In this document: positions 7,301 to 53,801 of the stretch, piece by piece
Layout: each line of letters starts with the position of its first letter
Position numbering within the stretch: position 1 is the first letter of the stretch
NCBI GenBank assembly: GCA_037200545.1
Contig: JBBCGE010000003.1
Location: forward strand, 355,948 to 419,947
Direction of reading: 5' to 3'
Origin: Limisphaerales bacterium
GTDB lineage: Bacteria > Verrucomicrobiota > Verrucomicrobiia > Limisphaerales > UBA11358
DNA length: 64,000 nucleotides
Notes under the pieces: model-generated
Told to the model about the DNA's origin: nothing
Seen by the model: the letters and a program-made list of their open reading frames with translations, nothing else
Databases searched by the model: none
Program-made: the position numbers and the translations under genes

Positions 7301-7317
7301 TACGACATTTGACCGAT
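7300..7317 (+). promoter_or_regulatory. conserved 18-nt intergenic motif ATACGACATTTGAC(C/G)GAT, copy 1 (copy 2 at 8126-8143)
   Basis: 17 of 18 nt are identical between the two copies. Each lies just after a stop codon and ~50-65 nt upstream of the next gene in the kinase / regulator / malectin series. Contains a TTGAC -35-like core. Confidence 0.25.
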
Positions 7318-7364
7318 TTCACCGGGCCGGACTTGAGCTAGAATAGTCATCAAACATTGATGAC

Positions 7365-8072
7365 ATGCCGGCACAATTGGCACATAGTATCGGCCTTGAT
7401 TTGATAACGAAAGTCGCCATCGTTGAAGACAATGCCACGCTGCGGAAATACCTCGCGGAGGTGATCAGCGATACGCCAGGCCATCGCTGCGTCTGCGCGT
7501 GTGCTTCCGCCGAGGAGGCCCTGATTGAGATTCCCGTGCACAAACCAAACGTCGTGCTGATGGATATCCACCTGCCGGGCGAATCGGGCATTGCCTGCAC
7601 AGCGCGGTTGCGCGAAAAATTACCAAACCTGCAGGTCATCATGTTGACGGTCTATAAGGACATCAAAATGATTTTTCAGGCGCTGAAGGCCGGCGCATGC
7701 GGTTACGTTTTGAAGCGGTCGGATGACCGGGAAATTCTGGAGGCCATCGCGGAAGTCCGTGCCGGCGGGGCGCCGATGACCAGTGAAATCGCCCGCATGG
7801 TGGTTCGTTCCTTCATGGAATCAGCCAAGATCTCCGATGCGAACGGCACGGATCAGTTGTCGTCGCGGGAACTGGAAATCCTCGCGCTCGTGGCCGAGGG
7901 CTGTCCAAACAAGGAGATTGCATCGCGCCTGTCCATCAGCAACGGCACGGTGCGCACCCACCTGATGCACATTTATGAAAAACTTCACGTCCGTTGCCGT
8001 ACGGAAGCTGCCGCCAAATATCTTCGTTCCAAGCCTTCTGAAGCCGGCAGCATGTCAGCCATGCAGGCGTAG
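7365..8072 (+). CDS. response regulator, NarL/LuxR family (REC + HTH)
   Basis: VAIVEDN, VVLMDIHLPGESG (phospho-acceptor Asp region), and the C-terminal LuxR HTH LSSRELEILALVAEGCPNKEIASRLSISNGTVRTHLMHIYEKL. Confidence 0.85.
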   Translation: MPAQLAHSIGLDLITKVAIVEDNATLRKYLAEVISDTPGHRCVCACASAEEALIEIPVHKPNVVLMDIHLPGESGIACTARLREKLPNLQVIMLTVYKDIKMIFQALKAGACGYVLKRSDDREILEAIAEVRAGGAPMTSEIARMVVRSFMESAKISDANGTDQLSSRELEILALVAEGCPNKEIASRLSISNGTVRTHLMHIYEKLHVRCRTEAAAKYLRSKPSEAGSMSAMQA

Positions 8073-8194
8073 GACGCCTTGCGCATTCCGTTGCACCCGG
8101 AACAAAAACGCCGGGCGCCTTCAACATACGACATTTGACGGATGGCATCGTGTCTCATGTAAAAGCTAAGATTCTGCTGAAACCACAAATTTTT

Positions 8195-8821
8195 ATGCCT
8201 ATGAAATTCTGGCTGCAGCAGCCCTGCTTGTTTAGTCTTTTAATGCTCATGCTGCTTTTGCCGGCGGGCTGCGAGTCAAACCAAGTTTCACCGGCAGCAC
8301 AGGCAGTGAAGACGACTTCTTCTTCCGCCGTAACCACCGCAGCACCGGTCACCACGACCAAAGTTGCGCCCAAGGCGGTGCGCATCAAAGCAGGGAGTTC
8401 CGCCCCGTTCACCGATTCGCAAGGCAATGTCTGGCTGGCGGATCAAGGTTTCAATGGCGGCGATGTCATCGAACGACCGGACTTGGTCATCACCAACACG
8501 GCGGAGCCTGAAATTGATCGTTCGGAACATTACTCCATGGATTCGTTTTCCTGGCCGTTGCCGAATGGAAATTATCTGACGAAGCTGCATTTTTGCGAAA
8601 CCTTCGAGGGAATAACCGGACCGGGGCAGCGGATTTTTACTTTCAACGTGCAGGGTCATGACTTCAAGGATTTTGATGTTTGGACCAAAGCCGGTGGGCC
8701 GCTGACCGCATACGTCGAAACAGTTCCGGTGGAAATCAAGGACGGCAGGTTGCTGATCACCTTCACCGGGAACGTTGAAAATCCGCAGATCAATGGAATC
8801 GAAATCATTCCGCAACCCTGA
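8195..8821 (+). CDS. malectin-domain lipoprotein (carbohydrate-binding)
   Basis: Lipobox LLLPAGC. Malectin-like motifs FTDSQGNVWLADQGFNGG and YLTKLHFCETFEG..GQRIFTFNVQG. The start was chosen at the internal Met that precedes the signal peptide. Confidence 0.65.
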   Translation: MPMKFWLQQPCLFSLLMLMLLLPAGCESNQVSPAAQAVKTTSSSAVTTAAPVTTTKVAPKAVRIKAGSSAPFTDSQGNVWLADQGFNGGDVIERPDLVITNTAEPEIDRSEHYSMDSFSWPLPNGNYLTKLHFCETFEGITGPGQRIFTFNVQGHDFKDFDVWTKAGGPLTAYVETVPVEIKDGRLLITFTGNVENPQINGIEIIPQP

Positions 8822-8888
8822 ACATGAGGCCGAACGCATGGTGAGCTGTGATGAATTCCGGCTCATGCAATTTTGAACAAAGTGATTT

Positions 8889-9860
8889 ATGAAATCATCG
8901 AGATACTTGGTTCCTGAGGGCACTTACATGGCCGACCCGGCGGCGCACGTTTTTAATGGCAGGCTCTACATCTACCCCTCGCACGACATTGAATCGGGCA
9001 TTCTCGAGAACGACAACGGTGACCATTTTGACATGCGGGATTACCACGTGCTTTCAATGGATTCGATTGACGGCGAAGTGACCGATCACGGCGTGATCTT
9101 GGATTTGAAGGATATTCCCTGGGCCGGCCGCCAGCTTTGGGATTCCGACTGTGCCTGCAAAAACGGGAGATACTTCATCTATTTTTCGCTTAAGGACAAA
9201 AATGACGTCTTCCACATCGGCGTGGCCATAAGCGACAGGCCGGAAGGTCCATTCATTCCGCAGGAGAATCCCATCAAAGGCAGCTATTCCATCGACCCCT
9301 GCGCCTTTCAGAATGACGACGGCTCTCATCATCTGATTTTTGGCGGGCTGTGGGGTGGACAATTACAACGCTATCGCAACAACAAGGCCATTGAGTGTGG
9401 AAAAGAACCAGCCGACCATGAGCCGGCACTGTGTCCCAAGATTGTCCGTTTGAACGACAACATGCTGGAGTTCACAGAAGCGCCGCGCGACCTCGTCATT
9501 CTCGATCAAAACGGCCAGCCTCTCACAGCCGGAGATCATGACCGCCGTTTTTTTGAGGCGTCATGGATGCACAAATACAACGGCAAATATTATTTCTCTT
9601 ACTCAACCGGCGACACCCACTTCCTGTGCTACGCCACGAGTGACAATCTTTACGGGCCATTCACGTATCAAGGGGTCATCCTCACACCCGTGGTCGGCTG
9701 GACCACACATCACAGCATCTGTGAATTCAAGGGCAAGTGGTATCTGTTCCACCATGATTCCCGGCCATCCGGTGGAAAGACCTGGCTGCGCAGCCTGAAG
9801 GTGATTGAACTTGAATATCTCCCCGACGGACTGATCAAGACCGTCCAAGGCCAGCAATGA
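8889..9860 (+). CDS. glycoside hydrolase family 43 (beta-xylosidase / alpha-L-arabinofuranosidase)
   Basis: ADPAAHVFNGRLYIYPSHD, SIDPCAF, FEASWMHKYNGKYYFSYS. These are typical GH43 five-bladed propeller signatures. Confidence 0.85.
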   Translation: MKSSRYLVPEGTYMADPAAHVFNGRLYIYPSHDIESGILENDNGDHFDMRDYHVLSMDSIDGEVTDHGVILDLKDIPWAGRQLWDSDCACKNGRYFIYFSLKDKNDVFHIGVAISDRPEGPFIPQENPIKGSYSIDPCAFQNDDGSHHLIFGGLWGGQLQRYRNNKAIECGKEPADHEPALCPKIVRLNDNMLEFTEAPRDLVILDQNGQPLTAGDHDRRFFEASWMHKYNGKYYFSYSTGDTHFLCYATSDNLYGPFTYQGVILTPVVGWTTHHSICEFKGKWYLFHHDSRPSGGKTWLRSLKVIELEYLPDGLIKTVQGQQ

Positions 9861-9928
9861 AGCAGACGGATTCCTCCCAAGACAAGACGTTGATTTGCAC
9901 AAAACCATTTTGACCGCCACCAAATAAA

Positions 9929-11473
9929 ATGAGCGCCAGCACCCAAAAACTTTCGTTCCTCGAAAAGTCCGGTTACAGCTGCGCCGACGCCGCAGCAAAT
10001 TTCGTCTTCATGACGATGATCCTGTTTCAGGCGAATTTTTACACGGACGTTTTCGGGCTGACCGCGAGCGCCGCCGCCGCGATTCTTTTGTGGCCGCGAT
10101 TGTGGGACGCGGTTGCCGATCCGATCGTGGGAATTCTCGCCGACCGTACCGACACACGCTGGGGGAAATTCCGCCCGTGGATTTTGTTCACGTCCATTCC
10201 TTGGTTTGTCGTCATGATCCTGGCCTACACGACGCCGCACGGTTGGAGCATGGGCGCAATGATTGCCTACGCGGCGATCACCAACACGATGTTGATGACG
10301 ATTTATTCGATGAACAACATGCCTTACGCCGCGCTCGGCGGCGTGATGACCGGCGATGTCAATGAACGCGCCCGGCTGAATTCATTTCGCTTCATCGCGG
10401 TGAACGCGGCGCAGTTTATCGTGGGCGGATTCACGCTGACGCTGGTCGCCAAATTCGCCGCCAAACATGCGTCCGGCGCAACCGTCGGCGTCGCGGATAA
10501 ACAATACGGCTGGCAGATGACCATGACCATCTGGGCGGTTTTGTGTCTCGTCCTTTTTCTTATCACGTTTGCCACCACCAGGGAACGCATCAAGCCCATC
10601 AACAAAATAAAATCTTCGCCAAAGCAGGATTTTGTGGACCTGTTGAAAAACAATCCGTGGAAGGTTATGTGGTGCTGGACGTTGGTGCATTTTGCGATTC
10701 TCTCTTTTCGCGGCGGCGCGCTTTACAATTATTATCATCACTACGCTAACAAGGCGGCGATGTTTGACTGGGTGCAAAAGCTTGGTCTTGTCGTTCCGGC
10801 CGGCACGCCCAGTTCCGGTGTTTTGGAAACCCTTGGTCTAATTGTACACGGCGACACAGCCAACCTGGCCAACTCAAATGTCGCCGATGTTTTTAACAGC
10901 ATCATCAACATGCTGGGAACCGGCCTCACCATCGTCGTCATTCTGCTTTCGCCGCCACTCGCCAAAAAATTTGGCAAGAAAGCGGTGGCTGCTACCGGCT
11001 TTGCATTGGCGACCATTGGCTCACTGTCGTTTTATCTTTTGAGTCCGTCGAATGTCTGGGGAATGCTGGCAATCACCGCATTTGTCTCGATTGTTTACGC
11101 GCCGACGATTCCGTTGACTTGGGCAATTTTTGCGGATGTCGCCGATTACTCCGAATTGAAAACGGGGCGGCGCTTCACCGGCATGGTTTTTGCCAGCATC
11201 GGTTTTGCGTTGAAATCCGGCCTGGCTTTGGGTTCAGCCTCGTTCCTTTGGATCATGATGGGCTTTTTCCATTACGACACCAAGCTGCCGGACGCAGCGG
11301 ATGCTGTTCAAGGCTATCGCGCGTGCAGCGGCATCGTGGTCGGAATTCTTTTCGGCATTTGCACGGTGCTATTGGCCGGTTATCAGCTCAACAAACGCAC
11401 CACCATCCAGATGGCCGACGAACTGGCGGAGCGCCGGAGAAAATATGCAGCGGAAAACCCGGCCACAAGCTGA
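9929..11473 (+). CDS. glycoside-pentoside-hexuronide (GPH):cation symporter, MFS superfamily (xyloside transporter-like)
   Basis: About 12 predicted TM helices, plus the GPH signature WDAVADPIVGILADRTDTRWGKFRPW. Confidence 0.85.
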   Translation: MSASTQKLSFLEKSGYSCADAAANFVFMTMILFQANFYTDVFGLTASAAAAILLWPRLWDAVADPIVGILADRTDTRWGKFRPWILFTSIPWFVVMILAYTTPHGWSMGAMIAYAAITNTMLMTIYSMNNMPYAALGGVMTGDVNERARLNSFRFIAVNAAQFIVGGFTLTLVAKFAAKHASGATVGVADKQYGWQMTMTIWAVLCLVLFLITFATTRERIKPINKIKSSPKQDFVDLLKNNPWKVMWCWTLVHFAILSFRGGALYNYYHHYANKAAMFDWVQKLGLVVPAGTPSSGVLETLGLIVHGDTANLANSNVADVFNSIINMLGTGLTIVVILLSPPLAKKFGKKAVAATGFALATIGSLSFYLLSPSNVWGMLAITAFVSIVYAPTIPLTWAIFADVADYSELKTGRRFTGMVFASIGFALKSGLALGSASFLWIMMGFFHYDTKLPDAADAVQGYRACSGIVVGILFGICTVLLAGYQLNKRTTIQMADELAERRRKYAAENPATS

Positions 11474-11479
11474 AGCATC

Positions 11480-12628
11480 ATGAAAAAACATTTTGTTCGG
11501 ACATCCCTTATCTGCATCATTTTGACGGCGGGCATGCTTGCAAGCTGTGCGACGGGCAATTCCACTGCCGAGCATCCGCCGACGCTCAAGGACGCTTTTA
11601 AAGATGATTTTTCGGTTGGCGTGGCGGTCAATCAGAAGCAGTTCACCGGTCAGGACACAAATGGCGTGGCGCTTATCACGTCGCAGTTCAATTCCATCTC
11701 CCCGGAAAATGTTTTGAAATGGGAAGTGGTGCATCCGCAACCGGGAACGAACGGTTACAATTTTGCGCCGGGAGATGACTATGTGGCGTTCGGTGAACAG
11801 CATCACATGCTGATTGTCGGCCATGCGCTCGTCTGGCATGAGCAGATCCCGCGCTGGGTTTTTCAGGATGAAAGTGGCCGGTCGTTGAGCGGAACCAATG
11901 CCGCGGACCGGGCTTTGTTATTGCAACGGATGCAAGACCATATCCAGTCGGTTGTTGGTCGTTATAAAGGCCGCATCAAAATCTGGGATGTCGTCAACGA
12001 GGCGTTGAATGACAGTCCCAGGCTCAATGACACCAACGTGCTGCGGCAATCGTCGCCCTGGGTGCGCGTCTTGGGCATGGATTTCATCGTCAAGGCTTTT
12101 GAATATGCCCACCAAGCCGACCCCGATGTCATCCTCCGTTACAACGATTATTCAGTTGAAAATCCCGCCAAACGTCAGCGCCTCATTATGCTCATAAAAT
12201 ATCTCCAATCGCAGAACGTGCCGGTCATGGCCATCGGGTCGCAGACGCACGCGAATCTCATCTGGCCTGAGCCTGGTTTGGAGGACAACTTTCTGACCGA
12301 AGTTGGCCGCCTGGGTTTGCCGGTTCACATCACCGAATTGGATGTCAACGGCTCGCAAGCCGGTCAACGAAGCCAGAGTGCTGATATCACGCAAAACGCG
12401 CAGGCCAGCGACGACGGACAACCAGTGGTGTCCGATCAGGAAAAACTGGCGCGACAATACGAAAATCTTTTTAAAATTTTTCTTAAGCATCGTGACACCG
12501 TGAAGCTGGTGACGTTTTGGGGCGTCACCGATGCTGATTCCTGGCGCAGGAATGGTCATCCACTTTTATTTGACGGCAACTGGCAGCCTAAGCCCGCATT
12601 TCACACAGTCATAAAAACGGCGGAATAG
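11480..12628 (+). CDS. endo-1,4-beta-xylanase, glycoside hydrolase family 10, lipoprotein
   Basis: Signal/lipobox LTAGMLASC. GH10 catalytic motifs WDVVNEA (acid/base) and ITELDV (nucleophile). Confidence 0.9.
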   Translation: MKKHFVRTSLICIILTAGMLASCATGNSTAEHPPTLKDAFKDDFSVGVAVNQKQFTGQDTNGVALITSQFNSISPENVLKWEVVHPQPGTNGYNFAPGDDYVAFGEQHHMLIVGHALVWHEQIPRWVFQDESGRSLSGTNAADRALLLQRMQDHIQSVVGRYKGRIKIWDVVNEALNDSPRLNDTNVLRQSSPWVRVLGMDFIVKAFEYAHQADPDVILRYNDYSVENPAKRQRLIMLIKYLQSQNVPVMAIGSQTHANLIWPEPGLEDNFLTEVGRLGLPVHITELDVNGSQAGQRSQSADITQNAQASDDGQPVVSDQEKLARQYENLFKIFLKHRDTVKLVTFWGVTDADSWRRNGHPLLFDGNWQPKPAFHTVIKTAE

Positions 12629-41569: not shown

Positions 41570-42909
41570 TTGGATCTGGTAAAAAAATATAACGTGGCCG
41601 GGCCGCGTTACACCAGCTATCCGCCGGCGACCAAGTTCAGCGAAGCTGTGACATGGGAGCAGCTTTCTGAGAAGATCGAAGATAATAATCTCAGTCCTCG
41701 CGATCTTTCGGTTTATTTTCACATTCCATTCTGCGAGTCGCTCTGCTGGTTCTGCGGCTGCACCACGGTCATCACCACCAACCACGATAAAGGCAATGAT
41801 TACGTTGCCTATCTTGGCCGCGAGGTTGCCAAGCTCGCGCCGCGATTGAACAAAGATCGCAAAGCCGTCCAACTTCATTTTGGTGGCGGCTCGCCCACGT
41901 TTTTGCGCCCCGATGAAATCCGCCGACTCGGTGAAATCATCCACAAACACTTTACGTTTTCACCGGATATTGAAGCGAGTGTCGAGGTGGACCCGCGCCG
42001 GCTGACACGCGAACACCTGGTCGCCTTGCGGGAGATCGGCTTCAACCGCGCCTCGATGGGCGTGCAGGATTTTAATCCGCAAGTGCAGGAGGCGATCCAT
42101 CGCATCCAGCCGCGCGCGATGACGCAGCAGGCGATTGACTGGATGCGCGAACTCGGCTTTGGCTCCATCAACCTTGATTTGATCTACGGTCTACCTTCAA
42201 CGAAACCCTCGACACCGGTGCGAGATGAAGCCCGACCGGCTCGCCGTGTTCAGCTACGCGCATGTGCCCGTGGATCAAGCCCCGCGCAAAAAATCCTCGA
42301 GGAAAAATCCTGCCGACGCGGAAAGCAAACTCGAGGTGCTGAAGCTCGTCATCGAACGGCTCACGGCCGGATGACCAGTATGTTTACATCGGCATGGATC
42401 ATTTTGCGAAACCGACGGACGAACTCACCATCGCGCAGCGCGGGAAAAAAATTGCAGCGGAATTTCCCAGGGCTACAGCACGCGCGCCGGCTCGGATATT
42501 TATTCGTTCGGCATGAGTGCGATTTCACAGACCCCCCGACGCCTACTGGCAGAACGAAAAGGAGCTGCCGAAATACCAGACGGCGGTGGACGCGGAAAAA
42601 GTGCCACTGCACAAGGCGTATTTCATGACCGGCGAAGACAAGATCCGCCGCGAAACCATCATGCGCGCGATGTGCGACCTCTCACTCGACTTCGCGGCGA
42701 TGAGCGCAAAACTCGACATCAACTTTGAGGAACATTTTGAAACGGAACTTGCCGCGCTCGCGCCTTTCATCGCCGATGGACTGGTGAAAAAAACTCCTGC
42801 CGGACTCGAGATCACGAATTCCGGCCGCCTCTTCATCCGCAACATCGCCATGTGTTTTGACAACACGCTCGGCGCGGCTAATGAGCGCAGACACTCCAAG
42901 ACGATTTAA
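41570..42909 (+). pseudogene. hemN: oxygen-independent coproporphyrinogen III oxidase (radical SAM HemN), at least 3 frameshifts as sequenced
   Basis: N-terminus LVKKYNVAGPRYTSYPPATKF, radical SAM motif IPFCESLCWFCGC, GGGSPT. The C-terminal ORF 42517-42909 (YWQNEKELPKYQTAVD...GRLFIRNIAMCFD) is the HemN C-domain. The middle part is only recovered by switching frames. Confidence 0.85.
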
Positions 42910-43191
42910 TTTTTCGCGGATTCAAAGAAGCGAACCCATCAAACTTCATCGAAAAGCGGCGACCACTTCTGCGATGTAAAATGATGTTCCACCTCCCGGC
43001 GAATCTGGGGTGATAATAATCGAATTAACCTAATTGTCTCCTGTTTCGCTGATCCAAAGCGTGCATCCAGGATTTTCACAGACATCTGCAAACCGGCCAA
43101 GCTTCTTTCTTAATCCGTTGAATTTCGGAAAGGATTCGTTTTTGTTTTGCTTCATGTAAGGCAGAAATTTCCGACATGATTTTTGATTCTT

Positions 43192-43674
43192 CTACGAGAG
43201 CGTTATCCTGTTTCTCTTCTTCTCAAATAGCGGTTTTGGTTTAGCTCCTTTGCAAGCTTTCAAATGACCGGAAAGATGCTGCTTTTCAACTGAACAATTA
43301 CATTTGGGACAAGTCTCCATTGTTTTTGAACTTTGTGACGGACAACGGGATTTTTTGTGGTTCGATTGGTAGGACGAACACGTTGGAGCGTTCTAGGGCA
43401 GCGCTCCTTGTGTTCTTCACGCTCGTCTTCATAAAAAAGATCCGTTACAGCATGGACATTTGGTCTTCAGCTCCGTTTCTCTGCGAATACGATAAGTGGA
43501 TGCCCATTCCTCAAATTCAACATCAGCAGGAGTGAGGATTGTTATTTGGAAATCGCCCATTTTGACGTGTTTAATCAAGCCATCCTCACTCGAAAGAACC
43601 ACAAGTTCGCCAAGTAATTCGCTGAAATCTAGGTCGGGGGTGCCGCGAGCAAAAGCAATGTTCCATCGAGACAT
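43192..43674 (-). pseudogene. hypothetical protein with two C2HC-type zinc-finger-like motifs, frameshifted
   Basis: ORF 43429-43674 ends at ..KCPCCNGSF. Removing one base from the A6/T6 run (~43434-43439) continues it as YEDEREEHKERC. A second motif, CPKCNCSVEKQHLSGHLKAC, follows in another frame. The region is AT-rich. Confidence 0.3.
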
Positions 43675-43767
43675 CCGATTTGTAGTTTCGGCCTTGCGGC
43701 GAACCGAGGCACGATATTTTATTTACCAAAGCAAGATTTGGAGACACGAAGCTACTCTGGCTATTTG

Positions 43768-44072
43768 TCAGTGAGGCGATGCACGCGTAGGAATCACGAT
43801 GAGCAGCTCATCGAAGCAACCGTGTTTTGGCCACGGCCAACCAAGCGGCGGATTAAACCCACACAGAGCCGCCGTTTATGTCGGATAAAATAAACTTCCT
43901 TCCTACATTTAGGACAACATGTCGGATGACAAACATCTTTGAATCGTTCACTGAAAGAGTAGGTGCGTGAGCTAAATCCTGTCCCGCCATAATTTCCACC
44001 GCCCGATCCGATATGGCCGTCACCACCGAATCCGCATGTGCAACAGGGAGAATGATTATTTGCGTTACACAT
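43768..44072 (-). pseudogene. small Gly/Cys-rich zinc-ribbon protein, frameshifted
   Basis: MCNANNHSPCCTCGFGGDGHIGSGGGNYGG..., then CPKCRKEVYFIRH. After frame changes this continues as NGGSVWVNPPLGWPWPKHGCFD. Confidence 0.3.
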
Positions 44073-44219
44073 TGTAATTTCCGTGTTTCATCCGTGTTCA
44101 ATCTGTGACTAAATAATTTCGTTCGCAAATAAATTATTATTCACGAAATCCATCGCAATCATCATTTGCTGGCGATTGCCGCAATTGCCAAACGCCCGGA
44201 TTGGCGGTATAAACACAGC

Positions 44220-44437
44220 ATGAGCGCGCACGACCCTCATCACGATTGACCCGGACATTCTCGGCGGCACGCCGGTGTTCAAAGGGGACGCGCGTGCCCA
44301 TCAAGTCGCTGTTCGAGTATCTGGAGGACGACTATTCGTTGGAGGAATTTCTGGAATGTTTCCCGTCCGTGACACGCGCGCTGGCGTGCCGGGTGTTGGA
44401 ACAGTCAGAAGCGGCGCTCCTTGAGCCGTCCGCATGA
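44220..44437 (+). pseudogene. DUF433-family putative antitoxin, frameshifted
   Basis: ITIDPDILGGTPVFKG|TRVPIKSLFEYLEDDYSLEEFLECFPSVTRA is recovered by removing one G from the GGGG run at 44284-44287. Pairing with the DUF5615 gene downstream is the classic arrangement. Confidence 0.6.
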
Positions 44438-44758
44438 AAATCCTGCTGGACGAGTGTGTGCCATGGCCGATGCACCGGCTGCTCGCCGGCCATGAATTGT
44501 CGCACCGCTCAACAGTGTGGCTGGGGCGGGATCCAAAAAACGGTGATTTGCTGCGACTCGCGGAAAAGGAATTCACCCTGTTCATCACGTCCAGATCAAA
44601 ACTTACGCTACCAGCAAAATCTAGGCAGGTAGGCAAATTGCCATCCTTGAGCTTTCCACGAATAAATTGCGCCGTATCGTGGCGGCGACGGATGCTTTGA
44701 TGGCATCGGTGGAAGCGATCAAAAGCCCGGTGAGTTTCGGCATCTGGCAATTCCATGA
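44434..44758 (+). pseudogene. DUF5615-family (PIN-like) putative toxin, frameshifted
   Basis: MKILLDECVPWPMHRLLAGHE... and GDLLRLAEKEFTLFITS. The start overlaps the DUF433 stop (ATGA at 44434-44437). The reconstructed end overlaps the hemY start (ATGA at 44755-44758). Confidence 0.55.
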
Positions 44759-46164
44759 ATCCAAAATCCATCGCAATTATCGGCGCTGGTATCACGGGGT
44801 TGACCGCTGCGTTTTATCTCAAACGCAAGGGCGTGCCGGTCACGGTGTATGAAGCGGGCGGGCGTGTTGGTGGTGTCATCCAATCCATCCGCAAAGACGG
44901 TTTTCTCGCCGAGTTCGGGCCGAACACGATTCTTGAGACGTCGCCGAAGATCGCGCAACTCGTCGCGACGCAGACCTCGAATCGCACAAACTGAATCATG
45001 ATCCGAAAGCCACGGCGCGTTATGTGGTGCGCGATGGTCGTCCGATCGAGATGCCCGGTTCAGTGCCGGGATTCTTCACGACCAGGTTATTTTCACTAAA
45101 AGCCAAGTTCGCCATGGTGCGCGAGCCGTTCATCAAGCCGCGCCGCGATGGCGTGGAGGAAAGCATCGCGCAATTCGTCCGTGCGCCGCTTCAACCAGGA
45201 ATTTCTCGACCACGCGATTGATGCACTGGTGGCGGGCATCTACGCCGGCGATCCGTATAAGCTGTCGCTGCCGCACGCGTTCCCCAAGCTCAAGGCGCTG
45301 GAGGACAATTACGGTTCCATGATCAAAGGCCAGATTTTCGGCGCGCGCGACCGCAAGAAGTCCGGCGAAGTCGCCAAGGACCGCGCACCAAAATTTTCCT
45401 TTGACGAAGGATTGCAGGTGCTGCCGGATACGCTCGCGGTGCAGCTTGGTGATGCCGTAAAATTGAACACACCGGTCACGAAGCTCACGCAAACGCGTGA
45501 CGGCTGGCGCGTGACGACGGCCAATGGTGAATTTGAGCACAGTGCGGTGGTTTATTGCGGCACGGCACATCGCTTGGCGGAACTGGAATCGTTGATGGTA
45601 GGGGCTGCGCTGCCCCGCAGCCTTGAAATTGTAGCGGCGCAGCAACGCCGCTCTACCGGGGCGTTCTCCGGGAATCAATCATCCGCCCGTTTCGGCGGTG
45701 GTGCTGGGTTTTCGCCGTGAGGATGTGGCGCATCCGTGCAGCGGTTTCGGGATGCTGATCCCAAAAATCGCCGGCTTTAAAATTCTTGGCACAATTTTCT
45801 CATCTGCTTTATTTCCAAACCGCGCCCCCGGCCGGTCATGTCACTCTGACGAGCTATGTCGGCGGCGCGCGTTATCCTGAACTCGCCTCCATGCCGCCGG
45901 AAAAGCTGGTGGAGGTGGTGCTGGCGGATTTGAAGATTCTGCTCGGCGTGAGTGGCCGGCCGGTATTCATGCACACGGCTTTTGGGCCCAAGGCAATTCC
46001 ACAATATAACGTGGGCTATGGCAAATATCGTGATCTGCTGACCGATAATTGAAGCGAACAACCCACACCTGTTCTTCGCCGGCCATTATCGCGATGGAGT
46101 CTCGTTGGGCGATTCAATCGTTTCGGGCGTGAACATTGCCGAACGCGTTGGTAAGCTTTTTTAA
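44755..46164 (+). pseudogene. hemY: protoporphyrinogen oxidase (HemY-type, FAD-dependent), many frameshifts as sequenced
   Basis: FAD dinucleotide motif IAIIGAGITGLTAAFYL..G..VTVYEAGGRVGG. Co-linear fragments follow in changing frames (FLDHAIDALVAGIYAGDPYKLS, VVLGFRREDV, PAGHVTLTSYVGGAR, AIPQYNVGY, FFAGHYRDGVSLGDSI). Confidence 0.8.
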
Positions 46165-46165
46165 G

Positions 46166-47195
46166 ATGAGCAAAGCAATTCTCCTGGTCAATCTCGGGTC
46201 GCCGGACTCGCCGTCTGTGCCGGATGTGCGCCGTTATCTCAACGAGTTTTTAATGGATGGCCGGGTCATTGACGCACCATGGCTGGTGCGACGGTTTGTC
46301 GTCGGGATGATTTTGATCAACCGCCCCGAAAAGAGTCGGGCCATGCCTATGAAAAAGTCTGGGACCAAGGAAGGCTCCGCCACTTGGTCGTCACCAGCCG
46401 TCATGTGCAGGAGCTTTTGCAAAGGCGGGTTCGCGTGCCGGTGGAAACTGGCGATGCGTTATCAAAATCCGTCCATTAAATCCGCCGTAAAAAAACTGGC
46501 GGCGGGCGGCGCGACGGAGGTTTTGCTCATCCCGCTCTTTCCGCATTATGCGATGTCCAGCTACGAAACCGCCGTCGTGCGCGTGCAGGAAGTTGTCACC
46601 CAACTTGCGCCGCAGATGAAACTGGTCGTGCAGCCGCCTTATTACGACCAGCCGGACTATATCGCGGCGCTGGTGGCGAGCGCGCCGAATATTTTAAGGA
46701 GGACTACGATCATTTGCTGTTCAGCTTTCATGGCAATCCCGGAGCGGCACATCAAGAAATCGGACACGACGGGTTGTCATTGCCTGGCCACGCCCAATTG
46801 CTGCGAGACGCCCAGCCCGGCGCACGCGCAATGTTACCGGGCGCAGTGCTACCGGACGGCGGCGTATGTTCATTGAAAAGGCCGGCGTGCCGGCGGGGAA
46901 ATGGTCGGTGTCATTTCAATCACGGCTGGGAAAAGATCCGTGGCTGAAACCCTACACAGATTTCGAACTGCCGCGCTTAGCGACGGAAGGCAAAAAACGA
47001 ATGTTGGTGATTTGCCCGGCCTTTGTATCAGACTGTCTTGAGACGATGAAGAAATTGGGATGCGCGGCTGTGAAGAATTCATGTCCGGTAATGGCCAAGA
47101 GTTCACAACGGATTCCCTGTATGAACGAGCATCCGGCCTGGATTGGCGTCTTGGAAAAAAATGGCTGCACGATTCACGGAGCCCCACCCGGTTAG
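46166..47195 (+). pseudogene. hemH: ferrochelatase, several frameshifts as sequenced
   Basis: MSKAILLVNLGSPDSPSVPDVRRYLNEFLMD, LLIPLFPHYAMSSYET, HLLFSFHG(I)PERH, SFQSRLGKDPWLKPYT, LVICPAFVSDCLET. The 3' end is uncertain. One frame stops at 47193-47195, 3 nt before the att repeat. Confidence 0.8.
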
Positions 47196-47198
47196 AAA

Positions 47199-47217
47199 TG
47201 GAGCCAATGGCCGGGAT
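47199..47217. repeat. att direct repeat, distal copy (duplicate of the tRNA-Thr 3' end)
   Basis: Identical 19-mer to 53727-53745. It is the reverse complement of ATCCCGGCCATTGGCTCCA (T-arm 3' half, acceptor 3' strand, discriminator and CCA). Confidence 0.9.
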
Positions 47218-47315
47218 GGCTGTTATTCTAGCGATTGCGAAGACAATATGCCTGATTTTATTAGTGAATCAACCCTAATCATTGTAACCGATTCATACTC
47301 TTTTCAACTCGTTTA

Positions 47316-47339
47316 GTGTCCATTTTGGTGTCCGTTTTT
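47316..47339 (+). repeat. tandem 12-bp motif GTGTCC(A/G)TTTT(G/T) x2, candidate integrase arm-type binding sites (left end)
   Basis: GTGTCCATTTTG GTGTCCGTTTTT. The same motif occurs as a tandem pair at 53660-53683 near the other end, in the same orientation. Confidence 0.5.
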
Positions 47340-47423
47340 TTGCTGGCTAAATTATTATCATAAAAGACAAACACGTTTTCCGTTAGCAAATTTTAATGCC
47401 ATTTAGGAATTTAGGCCGAGTAT

Positions 47424-47505
47424 TACGCCGGTCGGGAGTGAGTAGCCTAACGTAAGGTTAAATTTATTCTAATGTCCCTTGTGGCTACTCACTCCGACCG
47501 GCGTA
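47424..47505. repeat. long near-perfect inverted repeat (23-bp stem, 35-nt loop) abutting the first CRISPR repeat
   Basis: TACGCCGGTCGGGAGTGAGTAGCC (47424-47447) pairs with GGCTACTCACTCCGACCGGCGTA (47483-47505) with a single 1-nt bulge. It ends 2 nt before the repeat at 47508. Confidence 0.8.
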
Positions 47506-47507
47506 GT

Positions 47508-47674
47508 GCTTTGCCTTGATTCCAAAAACGGGTAGAGCAAACTAACCAAACACCATTTACACAGGTGTAACCAGCTTTGCCTTGATTCCAAAAACGGGTA
47601 GAGCAAACTGGTTCCCAAAACCAATCTTCTTAAATGAAAGCTTTGCCTTGATTCCAAAACGGGTAGAGCAAACT
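47508..47674 (-). CRISPR. CRISPR array, 3 repeats (36 nt) and 2 spacers (30 nt)
   Basis: Repeats lie at 47508-47543, 47574-47609 and 47640-47674. The plus-strand sequence is GCTTTGCCTTGATTCCAAAAACGGGTAGAGCAAACT. The third repeat has A4 instead of A5. Spacers are 47544-47573 (AACCAAACACCATTTACACAGGTGTAACCA) and 47610-47639 (GGTTCCCAAAACCAATCTTCTTAAATGAAA). The minus orientation gives a GTTTGCTCTACCC... 5' end, typical of type II repeats. Confidence 0.85.
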
Positions 47675-47713
47675 CGGTGGGTGCAAGTGGCTGAATTTAC
47701 AGCCCTTGCACCG

Positions 47714-48027
47714 TTACCAGAGTTGGATCTGTTCGGGTAAGTCCTCCGCTTCCGTTTCGGAGCGGGGGAACCCTGAATAACATAAGACCGTTCCCATTGT
47801 GAACGTGTCACAAAAAATAGCCCGGATACTGCCTTCCGGAGGAGATGTTTCTTAACCCGGTCAATGTGGGTTTCCTGCCGGGCAAACGTAACGCACGCAC
47901 GCGCATAGACGCTGAATTGCACCATTTGATAGCCGTCATCTAGCAGGAAATTGCGAAAGTCTGTTGCGGCCTTGCGCTGCTTCTTGGCTATGACCGGCAA
48001 ATCAAATGTTACGACGAGCCAGCCCAT
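47714..48027 (-). pseudogene. cas2: CRISPR-associated endoribonuclease Cas2, about 3 frameshifts as sequenced
   Basis: MGWLVVTFDLPVIAKKQRKAATDFRNFLLDDGYQMVQFSVYARAC.. Frame switches then give HLPPEGSIRAIF / VTRSQWERSYVIQG / ETEAEDLPEQIQLW and a stop at 47714-47716. The listed ORF 47557-48153 reads through into the array only because of these shifts. Confidence 0.75.
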
Positions 48028-48935
48028 TTTATATTTTTCGGTGTCCACGGTTTGTAATGGCGCGGCTGGTTTTCCACCACGGCGCGGCGAAAGCCCGCGC
48101 ACCACGCCTTCAATTACGCCCTGAATTTCTAGCGTCAAATCCAGATAGTCCACCCGCTCTAATGGAAAGCCTGTTTACCCATTTGCGAAACTCCTTGCTG
48201 ACTTCCCATTGGCTTTTGTCGGGATGTTCCTTCACCCATTGAATCACGCGCCAATCCACGCATGGACGAAACTGTTCCATCAAATCATAAGCCAGCGGGG
48301 TGCTGCGTTCGCGGGCGACGTGGCCAATGCCATAGGTAGGATCAAGGCCAACACCAAAAAGTTTTTGCAGAATGGTAGAGAGCAATACCGCGTACCGTAA
48401 TTAAGAAAATTATTCAAACCGCCTTTGGCACGGTCGCGGGTGAAATTCTCATCATTCAAACTGCGGCCAAAAATCTGCCAGAAATTTTTCGCACAGAGGG
48501 CTTCCTTATGCGGCTTTTTGCCAAGCGCGGTTGCCCGCAAACTTTGCAAGGCTGCATTCTTCGGCGCGATGTATTCAGCAAGTGAAAGCTGGTTCTGACA
48601 TTTTGCATCAATCGTTTTTTGCCATAAAATGCAGCCGTGCGCGTGGCGTGAGATTAAGCATGGCGCGGGAAAGAATCGTGTCCTGTGGAACGATTGGCCG
48701 GGATCACAAGGCTGACGGGTTTGAACGCTTCACAAATGATTAGCGCGACGCCATGCTTGGCGGCTTCAAGAAACAAATTGCTGTGAATGGACGCTGAAAA
48801 ACTGGTGATGATAATGGACGCCACATCCTCCAGCGGAAGCTTGCGCTCGCCTTCGGAAGTCTTGCACGTCAACTGCCCATCCCGACAACTTAAAGAGCAA
48901 TTCGCGCTATCTATGCTAACTATGTGATATGACAT
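48028..48935 (-). pseudogene. cas1: CRISPR-associated endonuclease Cas1 (type II), at least 3 frameshifts as sequenced
   Basis: N-terminus MSYHIVSIDSANCSLSCRDGQL..LPLEDVASIIITS..HGVALIICE. Later fragments in other frames: ILWQKTIDAKCQNQ, AKNFWQIFG, GGLNNFLNYG, GLDPTYGIGHV..STPLAYDLMEQFRPCVD. The exact 3' end relative to cas2 is unresolved. Confidence 0.8.
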
Positions 48936-48984
48936 AGAGCTAATTCTGACCTGCCAGAAATAGCCAGTCCTATGCCACTAAAAG

Positions 48985-51900
48985 TTATTCGGAAGGCTTG
49001 ATTTCAAAGGTCGGGATGCCTGCAAGCTGGCTTTTAAGTATTTTCAACCCGCCATTGTAGAGAGCTTGTAGGCGAACGCTCTGGTAACAGTCATTCCTGC
49101 CAGCAACACGGTATTCGATTACATCCGGCGCACTAAAATCTACTGTCAGTCCATCGCGTTGCTTAAATTGCACTCCTCGAATCATCCACAATCCTCGATA
49201 GTCGCTTCGCCCGGCTTTGTTAAGCACTCGAATTAACATTCCGTTTCGTAACAAGCGCGGTTGCTTGCCTGCGTTACGCGCCTTTAATTCTTTGATACGA
49301 CGCCAGACTTTGTGCCAAGGGATGACAACAAACCTTTCCTCGCCTTCGGCTGCGTGGTCTAGGATTGCAACTCCAAAGTTATCGGTTATGACGCGCACGC
49401 CTTTTTGGGGTGAGAGTTTTCCGGGTTCAAGCCCAATGACTTTAGAAACATTTTCTTCAGTGTCTTTTATAGAGAGTTTTCCTGTCTTCGGATCGCGCGA
49501 CTGTTGGTGTAAGGAAATTCGGCCATCTTTAATTCCAGTTATGCCGCGCGTATTTTCTTCAACGTGCATTCCGCTCATGTCCGCTGGAATATGTTGCACA
49601 ACGCGTTTTTCGGCGAGGCGATGGCGGATTTGTTCCTTCAATGCGTCGGGCAGTTCGGTCAAACCAAAGCGGTTTTGGGTGTCAAAGTCGAAATATCCCG
49701 TCGAGCGTAAAAGAGCTTTCTCGGCATCGTTTGGGTTGCGCTTTAACATCAATTCCCACAAGCCGCCGTTATTTGGTAAATAATGAGAGGCTAATCCAAG
49801 CACACACGCATCAAGCGCGTGATGCAAATGTGTCAGATTGCGAATTTCGGTTTTTATTTTTGATGCTGCCGTCCGCATCTTTCACTTGTGGCGCGGCGGT
49901 TGCCAGACAGCCGAGCAAATTCCAACCTTTCCGCACCGTGCCGGTGACGGAACCGGGCAGGGAAACGACCGTTGGCGGTTTGTTATTTCCAGCGAAGGTT
50001 TTTTTGATGATTTGTGCGCCTAAACGGACAAGTTGTGACGTAACGGTGAGATCGCTCGGCACAAAACCTTTTTCTTCGTAGGATTGAAGTAGTAACAACT
50101 CTTTCCGTTTTTTCTTCCGCCGCTTGTCATCATCGTGGCCTTTGAAAGTTTCAAGGCTATCTGCCCATTGCTTGAAACGCGTGAGTGAGACGATGGAAAG
50201 CTGCGGTGATCCTTCTACGACTTTGCCTTGTTCATCACTGACAAATTGCATCGCCGTGCGCTGGCCTTTCATCCGATTCACTTCGGCAAAGGTGACAACC
50301 AGAGAATCTAACGAATCCGAAGGCCGGAGTGAACGCGGGATGACGTGATCTTTGTCCACCTGTCGCGAAACCAGATCAATCGCGTCATAAGTTTGCCCGG
50401 TGTAAGGACACGTCCAGCCGAGGTCTTCTGCGATACGCGCCTTACGGATAAGTCCGGCAGTGATTTGAATGGGTTTGCCGTTGAAAGTTCTTCCGTCCAA
50501 GTTTTCTTCCAGTTTGGCGGCAACGCCGTGATGATTTGATAATCGCCGACCTAAATCTTGTTGGATTTCCTTTGCTGATTTGCCGGACATTTCGCGCAAG
50601 TCGCGATTCACTTCAATAGTCGCAGTGGCGATGCGTGATTTATCGCCGTTGGCATAAGCAGGTTCGGCAATCAAATCTTTGACCAGCCGTTCAAGAATCA
50701 AAAGGCGATGGCGGACAAGGTGATTATTGGTTTGCTGGTCAATCCGCTTTTCTAATTGCGCCTGCCGCATTTCTTCCGTGATACACAAGCTATTGCCGTC
50801 TTCCTTGGGATGTTTTCCGGCCATCACCTCGGCATAGGCGCGGACGAGCAGGGGACGGGCATAAGCGGCACGGCCATCTGACTTTTTAATTGTTAGCGGA
50901 TTTTTTAATAAATCGTCGCGATTGAAAGAACCGGCCTTTTTAGAACGCTTCGTGTTCGCTGCCTCGGCAAGCTTGTTTAACTCCGCCTCAAACTCCGCCA
51001 AAGATTCCCCGCGCTTTTGCACGATTTCACAAATGCGCTCCAACGTGACCGGCTTGCCACGCTGCCAGAGATCGCGCGCCCGCTTTTGCACTGGATAAGA
51101 AAAAGTCGGCCAGAGTGTTTTTAATTTATCACCCCTGACAAGTTTTTGAATGGGATCAAGCAGCAACGCATCTTTGGCGTCTGGGTGCATAAGCATCATT
51201 TCCAGATTATTTCGCTCGCATCCCGGCAGTTCACGGACGGCTTTTTTTAATTCCGTTGGCGTCAGCGCGCCTTCGCTTTCCATGAGCGCATTTATTTTCT
51301 TCCGTTCGTCAGCGGTCAATTGACGTAATTCTTTTTCCTTTGCCCCTGCTACGCGAATGTTTGCCAGCGTCATTGCCCAGCGAAACTTTAGAAACTCTGG
51401 ACAATTCTTTGACGGAACCTTTTCGCCGGTAATCGGGCAGATGGAAATGATGCGGTTATCAAAACGGGGAACAAGCTGGCCGAACAGCAAGCCGCCTTGA
51501 TAACGGGCGGGCAATTTCAAATCAGGAACGCCCGCTGTCTGCCAATCCTCAAAAAGACTTTTAAGAAACCCGTCGGTAATGGCAGGTAATTTCCTCCGAT
51601 GATATTCCAACAAGTGACGCACTTCATTTTCTACGATGGATCGCGGAAATGCGGCATTAAGTCGTTTGAAATTTTCCTTTGAGGACTGCTTATCGCCTAG
51701 CGGTTCAAGACCGAGTGCCTTGCACAAAGTTTCCGCCATCGTATTCGCGCTATATTTTTCCATTAACGTGTGCGCCTGCTTTTCTTTTTCTGTGTCATCA
51801 GCCTGCGCTTCGGCTTCCTGCGCGCTCCAGCGGCGGTTGCCATCGTAACCGCGATTGTGGGCATACCAGCGCAACACGTCCCAAAGTTCCGTCCAGCCAA

Positions 51901-52124
51901 GCAAATGCTTCGCATCGCCATTGCTGGCAAGAACGCGCGCGGCCAAAAACCACGGCGCGGCATGACCACCGGCTTGCTGGTGTTTTTGCTTTAATTGCTC
52001 GACAGACAAAACTTTCAGGTGTGCCAGGAGTTTTTCTATCTGCTCGATGCGGTGGCGGGTAGAGCGGGCAGGGCAGGGGCAAGCGCGGTGAACCGACAGA
52101 TAGAATGCTTTTGCGTTTTAACAT
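48985..52124 (-). CDS. cas9: Cas9 (type II-C, compact, ~1,045 codons as sequenced); one internal frameshift and an anomalous N-terminus
   Basis: Arg-rich bridge-helix-like ARSTRHRIEQIEKLL. RuvC-II ATIEVNRDL. HNH CPYTGQ..DKDHVIPRS...VNRMKGQRT. RuvC-III THLHHALDACVLG. ORFs 49811-52009 and 48985-49878 join at the T5 run 49867-49871 (..DGSIKIKTEIRNLTH..). No canonical RuvC-I DxGxxSxGW motif was found upstream in any frame. The start at 52124 (MLKRKSILSV) is tentative. Confidence 0.85.
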
Positions 52125-52247
52125 CTGTAAAAGTCAACCTACGGGTTTGCGTAGCTACGAAGTCCCGTAGCTTACACAAAATTGCGAAACGTGAAATAAT
52201 CATGCAACGTGAACATTGAACGAAAAGAATTTTTGAGCGTATTTCAA

Positions 52248-52535
52248 ATGCCGCCCGCCCGTGTGGTTGCGGAAGAAGCGGCATGGTATCTGGGTTTTAT
52301 GCCGCATGATATTCCTGTGCTGGTCAGTGCGGGGCTGCTTAAACCGCTAGGGCATCCGCCTGCCAGCGGCACGAAGTTTTTTGCCACGGCCACGCTTCAA
52401 AAACTGCGTGACGATCTCAAATGGCTGTCCCGCGCTTCCGATGCCATCGTAAGGCATTGGCAAACAAAGAACGCCCGCAAGAAGCCTAATGTGTTTAAGC
52501 CACACTTGTTGCCTGTTCTGGCTGAACAATGCTAA
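52248..52535 (+). CDS. small DNA-binding / excisionase-like protein of the integrative element (putative)
   Basis: About 95 aa: MPPARVVAEEAAWYLGFMPHDIPVLVSAGLLKPLGHP...LRDDLKWL. The size, the position next to the integrase and the HTH-like segment suggest an Xis/AlpA-type function. The assignment rests mainly on context. Confidence 0.4.
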   Translation: MPPARVVAEEAAWYLGFMPHDIPVLVSAGLLKPLGHPPASGTKFFATATLQKLRDDLKWLSRASDAIVRHWQTKNARKKPNVFKPHLLPVLAEQC

Positions 52536-53562
52536 TCACGTTCCCCGCCTTTGCCCGTTTTTCGTATTCTTCCAAGGACGGTAACAGAACTTGCGCTTTT
52601 CGCGCATACGCCCGATGCACTGCTTTTGAGCCATGTCCCAAGTTTTCCATCGCAAACCTTTCTGGATAGCCTGCGACTTTAGCCCGTTCTGCCCACGCGT
52701 AACGGTAGCAGTGCAACGAAACGCCGGAAACACCCGCTAAACGACAACGGCGAGAAAATGCGCTTGCGCGGTCTGATTCCTTTCTGCGCGCAACTTGCGG
52801 GAAAATAAAACCGGTTGCTGGACGTTCACGAAGAATTCTGGCGATTTCATCACCAAAGCGAATCATAGCTTGGCTGTCCGTCTTCATGCGGGCAAAGGAG
52901 ATAGTTTTATCTTTCCAGTCAATATTTTCCGCGCGTAACGAGGCAACATCACTTTGTGAACCGCCCAAGTGCCAAAGCATTTCATAATAATTATTCAATT
53001 CAGGATTATATTCGCGCGCTAAAATCCTTTGATGTTCGTCCAAGGTAATCCCGCGTTTCTCTCTGAACTTTATTTTCGGCCATTGTCGTTTTGGAATGAT
53101 GGACTTTAGGAGCCAATCCATATCCAGACAAAAATTGTGGATGCGGCGCAGATAAATGTTGGTTGAAACCGTTCCGTTTCGCAGCACTTTCAAAAGAGTT
53201 TCGCCCTGCGTTTCAATTATGATTTGATCCCGAATGAGATCAAAAGCCTTGTCTTTGGCCGCCGTCAGCCAGCGCGTTTTGTTTTCTTCCTGTTTTGAAG
53301 CAATCATCGCATCAAAAGCGTTTTGCCAAGTGCGAGTGCTAACGCCTGAATCCGTCCCGGCCAGATAAGCTTTGGCAATTTGCAAGTTCAACACTGGCTG
53401 GCGTTCGGATTGGTTTTTTGCGTCAATAATCTGGTGGGCTTCATCTTCATTGTGTTTGCCAAGGCTGGTGCGTTTGCCTGTTTTAGTATCCACGCAATAG
53501 AATGCTCCGCCGCGAATGCCGCGACGAATTAAACGGAAACGTTTCTTCATGTGATCTTTCAC
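52495..53562 (-). CDS. tyrosine-type site-specific integrase
   Basis: 355 aa and intact. C-terminal catalytic region has HCYRYAW (HxxR) and LGHGSKAVHRAYAR (His...Tyr nucleophile). It lies immediately beside the tRNA-Thr attachment site. Confidence 0.85.
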   Translation of the reverse strand: MKDHMKKRFRLIRRGIRGGAFYCVDTKTGKRTSLGKHNEDEAHQIIDAKNQSERQPVLNLQIAKAYLAGTDSGVSTRTWQNAFDAMIASKQEENKTRWLTAAKDKAFDLIRDQIIIETQGETLLKVLRNGTVSTNIYLRRIHNFCLDMDWLLKSIIPKRQWPKIKFREKRGITLDEHQRILAREYNPELNNYYEMLWHLGGSQSDVASLRAENIDWKDKTISFARMKTDSQAMIRFGDEIARILRERPATGFIFPQVARRKESDRASAFSRRCRLAGVSGVSLHCYRYAWAERAKVAGYPERFAMENLGHGSKAVHRAYARKAQVLLPSLEEYEKRAKAGNVISIVQPEQATSVA

Positions 53563-53659
53563 GCAATCACGAAGATAAAAGAAGCCAGTCCCGAAGTGTT
53601 AAGGGGTAACGGATGGTTTATCGTCCGTTACGCCTAATTCCTACCAGACACCGAAATTG

Positions 53660-53683
53660 GTGTCCGTTTTGGTGTCCGTTGCG
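53660..53683 (+). repeat. tandem 12-bp motif GTGTCCGTTTTG GTGTCCGTTGCG, candidate integrase arm-type sites (right end)
   Basis: Same motif and orientation as 47316-47339. The nearby inverted pair GTAACGGA / TCCGTTAC (53615-53640) contains the same CCGTT core. Confidence 0.5.
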
Positions 53684-53726
53684 GACGCCACGACTCCTAA
53701 ACTACTACTGCACCCACAGTTAAGAG

Positions 53727-53745
53727 TGGAGCCAATGGCCGGGAT
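53727..53745. repeat. att direct repeat, tRNA-proximal copy
   Basis: Identical to 47199-47217 and forms the 3' end of tRNA-Thr. Confidence 0.9.
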
Positions 53746-53801
53746 TGAACCGGCGACCGACGGTTTACGAAACCGTTGCTCTACCACTGAGCTACATTGG
53801 C
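53727..53801 (-). tRNA. tRNA-Thr: tRNA-Thr (anticodon CGU), CCA encoded
   Basis: Minus strand: GCCAATG TA GCTC AGTGGTA GAGC A ACGGT TTCGTAA ACCGT CGGTC GCCGG TTCAATC CCGGC CATTGGC T CCA. This gives a clean cloverleaf (7-bp acceptor, 4-bp D, 5-bp anticodon, 5-bp T stems). Anticodon loop is TT-CGT-AA. Confidence 0.9.

Follow-up and report, generated by a model that had tools for sequence, protein, structure and literature searches.

Can a type II-C CRISPR-Cas9 system travel as the only cargo of a 6.5-kb integrative element? The question is raised by a stretch of 64,000 nucleotides (nt) from a Limisphaerales bacterium (assembly GCA_037200545.1, contig JBBCGE010000003.1, positions 355,948 to 419,947), hereafter called the window, in which a tyrosine integrase gene and a cas9-cas1-cas2 locus lie together between two copies of a 19-bp repeat (47199-53745). 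A preliminary description of the window had taken this segment for a self-mobile unit by which Cas9 is disseminated. We arrive at a different answer. With a probability of roughly 0.75, the segment is an integrase-only Verrucomicrobial islet of 6.5 kb in a tRNA-Thr gene, its Cas9 cargo has been inactivated by an internal deletion, and the single-base insertions and deletions (indels) seen in the region are most likely errors of the assembly consensus.

The ends of the islet are marked by the exact 19-mer TGGAGCCAATGGCCGGGAT, which occurs twice in the window, at 47199-47217 and 53727-53745; no third copy of this attachment (att) sequence is present in the window, and none of 100 shuffles gave such a match (0/100). 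The right copy comprises the 3'-terminal 19 nt, CCA included, of a minus-strand gene for tRNA-Thr(CGU) (53727-53801), which is intact according to ARAGORN and Rfam (72.7 bits) and which provides the core of the right attachment site (attR). The left copy, the core of attL, exactly duplicates these final 19 nt of the tRNA, and the core is shared with related islets in which the repeat spans 23 nt (L089/L090) or 24 nt (L091). The predicted attB site would consist of GGTTAGAAA, the 19-mer and TGAACCGGCGACC, and the predicted attP site of CAGTTAAGAG, the 19-mer and GGCTGTTATTCTAGCG. The GC content of the element is 0.490 versus 0.553 in the remaining window, the lowest of 177 windows of the same size being 0.525, and its tetranucleotide distance of 0.0236 is about twice the maximum reached elsewhere in the window (0.013). 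The direct repeat, its identity with the 3' end of the tRNA and the AT-rich interior were all claimed in the preliminary description, and each of them holds. The hemH stop codon (47193-47195) likewise lies 3 nt ahead of the left repeat as claimed, although hemH itself is split in two.

The integrase gene beside the tRNA had been called intact, and our analysis agrees. It occupies 52495-53562 on the minus strand, 165 nt from tRNA-Thr, encodes 351 aa from an ATG at 53550, and matches PF00589 (Phage_integrase, 7e-10) and PHROG 1. Its homologues, with lengths of about 350 aa, number over 5800 and are mostly Verrucomicrobial. All residues conserved in at least 95% of the family are kept, bar one conservative L-to-I change, and so are the catalytic features HxxR (HCYR), GH and the Tyr within RAY. 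A small partner open reading frame (ORF; 52209-52535, plus strand, 108 aa, or 95 aa if translation starts at the ATG at 52249) is convergent with the integrase and overlaps its 3' end. In 52 of 80 related loci, the integrase is immediately followed by a homologue of this partner ORF, and by this position it is a candidate excisionase or directionality factor; of the earlier label "excisionase-like", the conserved place beside the integrase stands. Relaxase, oriT and type IV secretion genes, the traits of integrative and conjugative or mobilizable elements, were not found in the element; the ten ORFs scanned in Pfam gave only the integrase, Cas9, Cas1 and Cas2, and no element ORF of at least 80 aa lies clear of the integrase, the partner ORF and the cas genes. 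Phage structural, replication and packaging genes are also missing, with the integrase as the single PHROGs match, and the integrase family is absent from IMG/VR.

Between the repeats and the genes, both ends of the element carry conserved arms. The arm on the attL side (47218-47336) contains the tandem motif GGTGTCCATTTTGGTGTCCGTT at 47313-47336, which is nearly invariant (alignment A4). About 100 nt of this arm (47231-47335) are 86% identical to positions 11880-11983 of L091 and 82% identical to positions 19791-19885 of L090, and the matching segments each lie directly inside their own distal repeat. The arm on the attR side (53563-53726, 164 nt) is situated between the integrase and the tRNA, with its tandem motif at 53657-53680; at least 12 related loci match the whole of it at 74-87% identity, and many more match it in part. 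Each of the two arms has GGACACC in tandem. The tandem motif CGGACACCAAAACGGACACCAA is invariant and present in both arms (alignment A5 for the attR arm), and we interpret its copies as putative arm-type binding sites of the integrase.

The relatives of the element were collected by an integrase scan of Joint Genome Institute (JGI) metagenomes, which yielded 80 loci, and five further integrase contexts were looked up singly. Wherever a tRNA is detectable in the 80 loci, integrases at least about 70% identical to that of the window all adjoin tRNA-Thr(CGU), and those about 60% identical adjoin tRNA-Ser(CGA) or tRNA-Cys(GCA). Both element ends are present in three loci bounded by the tRNA-Thr core, namely L089 and L090 (10.1 kb with a 23-nt repeat; coordinates 9762-19921 in L090) and L091 (5.0 kb with a 24-nt repeat; 6919-12019). 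The cargo of L090 is made up of a BglII-like restriction enzyme together with an N6/N4 methylase, a SIR2 protein of 1208 aa and an ankyrin protein, and that of L091 includes a NorB-like oxidoreductase gene as well as a fragment of a transposase; the cargo of other relatives includes a TrwC relaxase (L005), Tc toxins (L004) and a ScoMcrA-like (McrA-like) HNH nuclease. The shared backbone of integrase, arms and core thus recurs in other contexts with other cargo (L089/L090, L091, L003, L005, L118 and L107/L108). Since the arms are kept at 80-87% in sister islets with unrelated cargo and in unrelated chromosomal contexts, the segment is a true tRNA-Thr integrative element, and the position of the cas genes between the two family arms makes them cargo of the islet. 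By these homologies, the element is a member of a Verrucomicrobial family of 5-10 kb integrase-plus-partner islets. The earlier claim of a tRNA-Thr integrative element with CRISPR-cas genes inside its boundaries is therefore borne out by the conserved arms of the sister elements and by L003, a second islet of this kind.

A separate observation concerns the target range of the family. The arm motif is kept by the integrase loci of about 60% identity at tRNA-Cys(GCA) and tRNA-Ser(CGA) (L118 about 11130-11285, L119-L122 and L129-L146), where the core specificity appears to have shifted within one integrase family with the arm sites unchanged.

The cas cargo is incomplete in its cas9 gene. The cas9 remnant (48985-52069, minus strand; HNH_4, 6e-15) comprises codons 70-1096 of a protein of about 1096 aa, and a 1-nt insertion at 49855 splits it into ORFs of 732 and 297 aa; tblastn with P0001 aligned residues 70-809 to 52069-49850 and residues 806-1096 to 49860-48988. 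The intact Cas9 proteins of relatives have about 1096 aa and are 80-86% identical to the window Cas9. In each comparison with L001, L008, L009, L010 and L011, the homology of the cas9 DNA ends at 52068/52069, corresponding to nt 208 of cas9. The absent codons 1-69 include the RuvC-I motif LAFDVGHSSIGWAVL (DVGHSSIGWA); the HNH domain and RuvC-III (HHALDA) are still there, and without RuvC-I the RuvC nuclease is incomplete. The tracrRNA (trans-activating CRISPR RNA) gene, the promoter of cas9 and its first 207 nt are replaced by a junction segment (52070-52208) with no homology to the regions upstream of cas9 in relatives. The deletion junction 52069/52070 is reproduced in an independent Logan contig (L172, run SRR28211700), which matches window positions 53789-51844 at 100% without gaps and runs from within the tRNA through attR, the integrase and the partner ORF into the truncated cas9 for 225 nt. 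The perfect match across the junction means that the truncation of cas9 is not an assembly artefact.

At the truncation point, cas9 codons 70-73 share a 10-nt identity (GCTCTACCCG, on the cas strand) with the CRISPR repeat (52056-52083 versus 47660-47687). We considered this identity as a hint of a microhomology-mediated deletion and rejected it, as an identity of this size is at chance level for the region.

The loss of the tracrRNA gene can be judged against a well-conserved reference. The relatives encode a near-invariant tracrRNA of about 130 nt on the opposite strand, about 45 nt upstream of cas9, made up of the anti-repeat GGAAUCAAGACAAAGU, a structured tail and the terminator CCGGC…GCCGGUUUU. 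We found this tracrRNA in L001, L008-L011, L003, L014, L018 and L022, divergent from cas9 at 9850-9960 in L001, at about 9850-9960 in L008, L009 and L010, at about 2300-2393 in L011 and at 12700-12817 in L003. Its 26-nt core has no match in the window at up to 3 mismatches, and blastn against the window was likewise negative. A weak inverted match at 47402-47420 was tried as a tracrRNA candidate and discarded, because ungapped and duplex scans there performed no better than shuffled controls and because the relatives have their conserved tracrRNA upstream of cas9.

The other parts of the locus are those expected of a type II-C system. Besides cas9, cas1 (48018-48935, minus strand; Pfam Cas_Cas1 on two fragments), cas2 (47714-48048, minus strand; Pfam CRISPR_Cas2, 1.7e-12) and an array are present, and neither csn2 nor cas4 was detected by Pfam or tblastn. 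The array (47508-47674, plus strand) consists of three 36-nt repeats and two 30-nt spacers, the A run of the third repeat being 1 nt shorter. Its repeat recurs with 100% identity in L011 and with 97% identity in L009. Compared with the 3 repeats of this array, L008 has 24 or more and L010 about 33, and neither spacer of the window has an exact match in IMG/VR. Because of the orientation of the relatives' anti-repeat, the CRISPR RNA would be read on the plus strand, opposite to the cas genes. With no tracrRNA gene, no cas9 promoter or start codon and no RuvC-I, the Cas9 locus of the window is predicted to be inactive. The preliminary description was thus right about the three repeats and about the presence of the cas9-cas1-cas2 genes of a minimal type II-C locus; what it missed is that cas9 lacks codons 1-69 and that the tracrRNA gene is gone, so that the locus is not a functional one. 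Between the attL arm and the first repeat there is also a long near-perfect hairpin of 86 nt on the plus strand (47422-47507; minimum free energy -51.6 kcal/mol, z-score -7.0), for which no homologue was found in the loci of relatives.

Taken together, these features suggest the following course of events. The islet would have entered by site-specific recombination between an attP core and the 3' end of tRNA-Thr(CGU), an event that would have regenerated the tRNA gene and left the 19-bp duplicate beside hemH. Its original cargo was a type II-C locus with tracrRNA, cas9, cas1, cas2 and an array read in the direction opposite to the cas genes. In the window copy, a single internal deletion took out the whole stretch from the partner ORF to cas9 codon 70, and with it the tracrRNA gene, the promoter, the start codon and RuvC-I. 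The array is reduced to three repeats, and an immunity module that is presumably inactive stands next to an integration module that is apparently intact. The undeleted layout on the same backbone is found in L003, which supports the reading of the junction as a deletion.

How the frameshifts of the region should be understood is a question of its own. Relative to L001, the cas genes carry nine single-base indels, several of them outside homopolymer runs: the one in cas9, five in cas1 (48684, 48644, 48395, 48176 and 48096; tblastn frame path -3/-1/-2/-1/-2/-3) and three in cas2 (47843, 47817 and 47762). Beyond the islet, hemH is found in two pieces, hemY in three and hemN in two (split at about 42625). 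The indels form a contiguous block at window positions 42600-49900, which possibly begins at 36400; the fragments from 36.4-41.5 kb and 43-45 kb have no Pfam match, and the extent of the block over 36.4-41.5 kb is uncertain. A minimum frame-switch count, based on stop codons only and corrected for the baseline, gave about 7 switches at 44.8-47.2 kb, about 19 at 36.4-42.9 kb and none in seven control genes totalling 17 kb. Exact-product look-ups aimed at Logan coverage of the block gave hits in NCBI (National Center for Biotechnology Information) records only, for the control genes as well. After correction of the frames, cas1 and cas2 contain no stop codons and their products are 84% and 92% identical to those of L001, and the ratio of nonsynonymous to synonymous substitution rates (dN/dS) relative to L001 is 0.11 for cas1, 0.04 for cas2 and 0.07 for cas9.

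One could take these frameshifts at face value, in which case cas1, cas2, cas9, hemH, hemY and hemN would all be true pseudogenes and the islet would have decayed together with its neighbourhood. The indels outside homopolymers speak for such decay, as does a split hemH product that is found on two NCBI contigs, and so does the truncation of cas9, by which the locus is already without function. We nevertheless regard genuine decay as unlikely. The indels run in one contiguous block past the islet boundary into the genes of haem biosynthesis and are absent from the roughly 17 kb of control genes in the window; nonsense codons are absent, and dN/dS is unchanged once the frames are corrected. A contiguous block that crosses the islet boundary, hits haem genes, consists of indels only and shows no relaxed selection probably reflects consensus errors of an unpolished stretch of the assembly. 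Gene calls within 42600-49900 should not be trusted, and the indel errors of this contig call for caution.

The preliminary description had proposed something quite different, a functional and minimal self-mobile type II-C cassette that spreads adaptive immunity, and had suggested looking for other hosts in which integrase and cas9 occur together. To its credit, cas9-cas1-cas2 and an array do lie inside an islet with an intact integrase, the cas genes have been under purifying selection relative to L001, and L003 is a second islet that bears cas9. The frequency of the linkage was surveyed from both sides. Among 80 cas9 loci from species-representative genomes, none contained the integrase family or the partner ORF, as judged with a narrow integrase hidden Markov model that unrelated recombinases could escape, and the element arms were absent from all 80 as well. 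Conversely, none of the 80 metagenomic integrase loci contained cas genes; across these and the five single contexts, cas genes accompany the integrase only in L003. The closest cas9 relatives, which are 85-86% identical, lie in contexts without integrase or tRNA, and the closest one with context, L001, has neither within 10 kb. As a side observation from these loci, a tRNA-Arg(CCU) gene lies 0.5-3 kb upstream of Verrucomicrobial cas9 in L032 (9452-9528) and L065 (7104-7179).

The single other case of linkage, L003, is a nanopore contig (contig_135317 of ERZ26871208). Its tRNA-Thr(CGU) is followed, in this order, by an integrase with 78% identity to that of the window, a partner ORF with 84% identity, about 1.3 kb of further sequence, an intact tracrRNA gene and cas9 from its N-terminus. 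The nearest relatives of its cas9 lie in L022, L018 and L014, which are free of the integrase (about 65-77% identity in segments that align well); to the window cas9 it is only 43-52% identical. The presence of two distinct cas9 lineages on one backbone implies either that they were captured separately or that the cas module was swapped. The check for co-occurrence therefore came out empty in 80 of 80 loci on either side and positive once, at the same tRNA-Thr(CGU). We consider a functional cassette in the window very improbable. The tracrRNA gene is missing, cas9 has no promoter, start codon or RuvC-I, as confirmed by L172, the two spacers that are left find no exact IMG/VR match, and the linkage of integrase and cas9 is missing in all 80 cas9 loci and all 80 integrase loci. 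The idea of a self-mobile Cas9 cassette as a notable route of dissemination is not supported, because this copy is inactivated, none of the 80 cas9 loci shows the linkage, and the closest relatives are integrase-free.

The cas genes might alternatively be an old chromosomal locus beside which an integrase module merely landed, with the left 19-mer as a chance match or as a relic of another element. Such an origin would agree with closest cas9 relatives that are chromosomal and integrase-free and with two islet-borne cas9 genes of different lineages. It fits poorly, however, with the family arm and tandem motif directly inside the left 19-mer, beyond the array, which place the cas genes between both arms, with a GC content that is even along the element (0.492 in the cas part and 0.485 in the integrase part) and differs from the flanks, and with the lack of a third att copy; we hold this origin to be highly unlikely. 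Least probable of all, and hardly credible, is an assembly chimera with a mis-join on the attL side or at the cas9 truncation, a suspicion nourished by the low-quality block around attL and by a Logan contig that ends at 51844, as both the junction of partner ORF and cas9 and attR are reproduced at 100% in Logan contigs (L172 and L007 overlap across tRNA-Thr(CGU)) and as the attL arm and core match the architecture of the sister islets, which is not expected of a random mis-join.

Several points weigh against the interpretation as a deleted integrase islet. The canonical Arg-I box of tyrosine integrases is absent throughout the family, and a conserved GxSQxD is found instead (alignment of the window integrase with P0121-P0240). 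Integrases of the IntDOT type are likewise not known to carry Arg-I. The role proposed for the partner ORF is accompanied by no Pfam or PHROG family match, and its single-sequence structure model is unusable (predicted local distance difference test score, pLDDT, of 47). The L003 contig stops inside cas9, and none of the islets seen is complete in having cas9-cas1-cas2 intact together with an array and attL. Orthologues of a 211-aa protein that flanks the islet revealed no empty site, being too distant or on contigs broken at the site: the contig of the nearest (72% identical) stops there, and those at 58-62% identity have a different neighbourhood, e.g., with tRNA-Ala and without hemH; an excision junction was not found either. 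No independently assembled contig backs the attL junction, which falls within the block rich in indels, and the indels could be real mutations.

If the islet is what we propose, CRISPR-Cas9 can travel on very small integrase-only islets in Verrucomicrobiota, beside sister islets with restriction-modification and SIR2 cargo, and integrase-only defence islands extend beyond Proteobacteria. It would also follow that such cargo may quickly be lost by internal deletion while the integration module persists. A more speculative extension, which we find possible but doubtful, is that undeleted islets like L003 measure about 8-9 kb and carry a complete type II-C system as their sole cargo, with cas9 captured or swapped from at least two Verrucomicrobial lineages; such a single-integrase Cas9 shuttle would be among the smallest site-specific carriers of full adaptive immunity described. 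In practical terms, the copy in the window is no usable Cas9; its main use is to draw attention to the islet family and to the conserved tracrRNA that goes with this Cas9 clade.

CRISPR-Cas systems, including Cas9, in integrase-bearing islands at tRNA genes have already been published, and the present islet is a small Verrucomicrobial case with inactivated cargo. Within its own phylum, the cargo is closest to the type II-C loci L001 and L008-L011, with which it shares cas9-cas1-cas2 at 77-86% amino acid identity, the same 36-nt repeat and an array directly after cas2. These loci differ from it in that their cas9 is intact (about 1096 aa), a divergent tracrRNA gene stands upstream, the arrays count between 7 and more than 30 repeats, and integrase and tRNA are absent.

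In Vibrionaceae, CRISPR-Cas loci lie in integrase-bearing islands at tRNA loci (McDonald et al. 2019, PMC6360697), with examples such as a 30-kb island with a type II-B (Cas9) system at tRNA-Met in V. natriegens, the Salinivibrio islands and the excisable type I-E island GI-24. The arrangement is alike, in that a CRISPR-Cas system, Cas9 included, sits in an att-flanked integrase island next to a tRNA gene, with mobility by site-specific recombination as the likely mechanism. The present islet has 6.5 kb versus about 30 kb, contains one integrase and no other cargo, and is type II-C, Verrucomicrobial and inactivated; excision has been shown experimentally for GI-24 and would be a prediction for our islet.

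CampyICE1 (van Vliet et al. 2021, PMC8743540) is an integrative and conjugative element of 70-129 kb in Campylobacter whose type II-C system is degenerate. In both elements a type II-C Cas9 is combined with integration, the system is reduced and the arrays are short. The Campylobacter element is large, can conjugate and has a functional Cas9 without cas1 and cas2; the islet, in contrast, retains cas1 and cas2 but has a truncated cas9 and lacks genes for transfer.

Integrase-only defence islands at tRNA hotspots have been described in E. coli, where the route of transfer is unclear (Hochhauser et al. 2023, PMC10121019). These islands resemble the islet family in their small size, their integrase, the lack of other mobility genes and their defence cargo, which in the sister islets comprises restriction-modification with SIR2 and the McrA-like HNH nuclease. 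The islet family belongs to another phylum and uses another integrase family, and its CRISPR-Cas9 cargo, partner ORF and arm motifs are specific to it.

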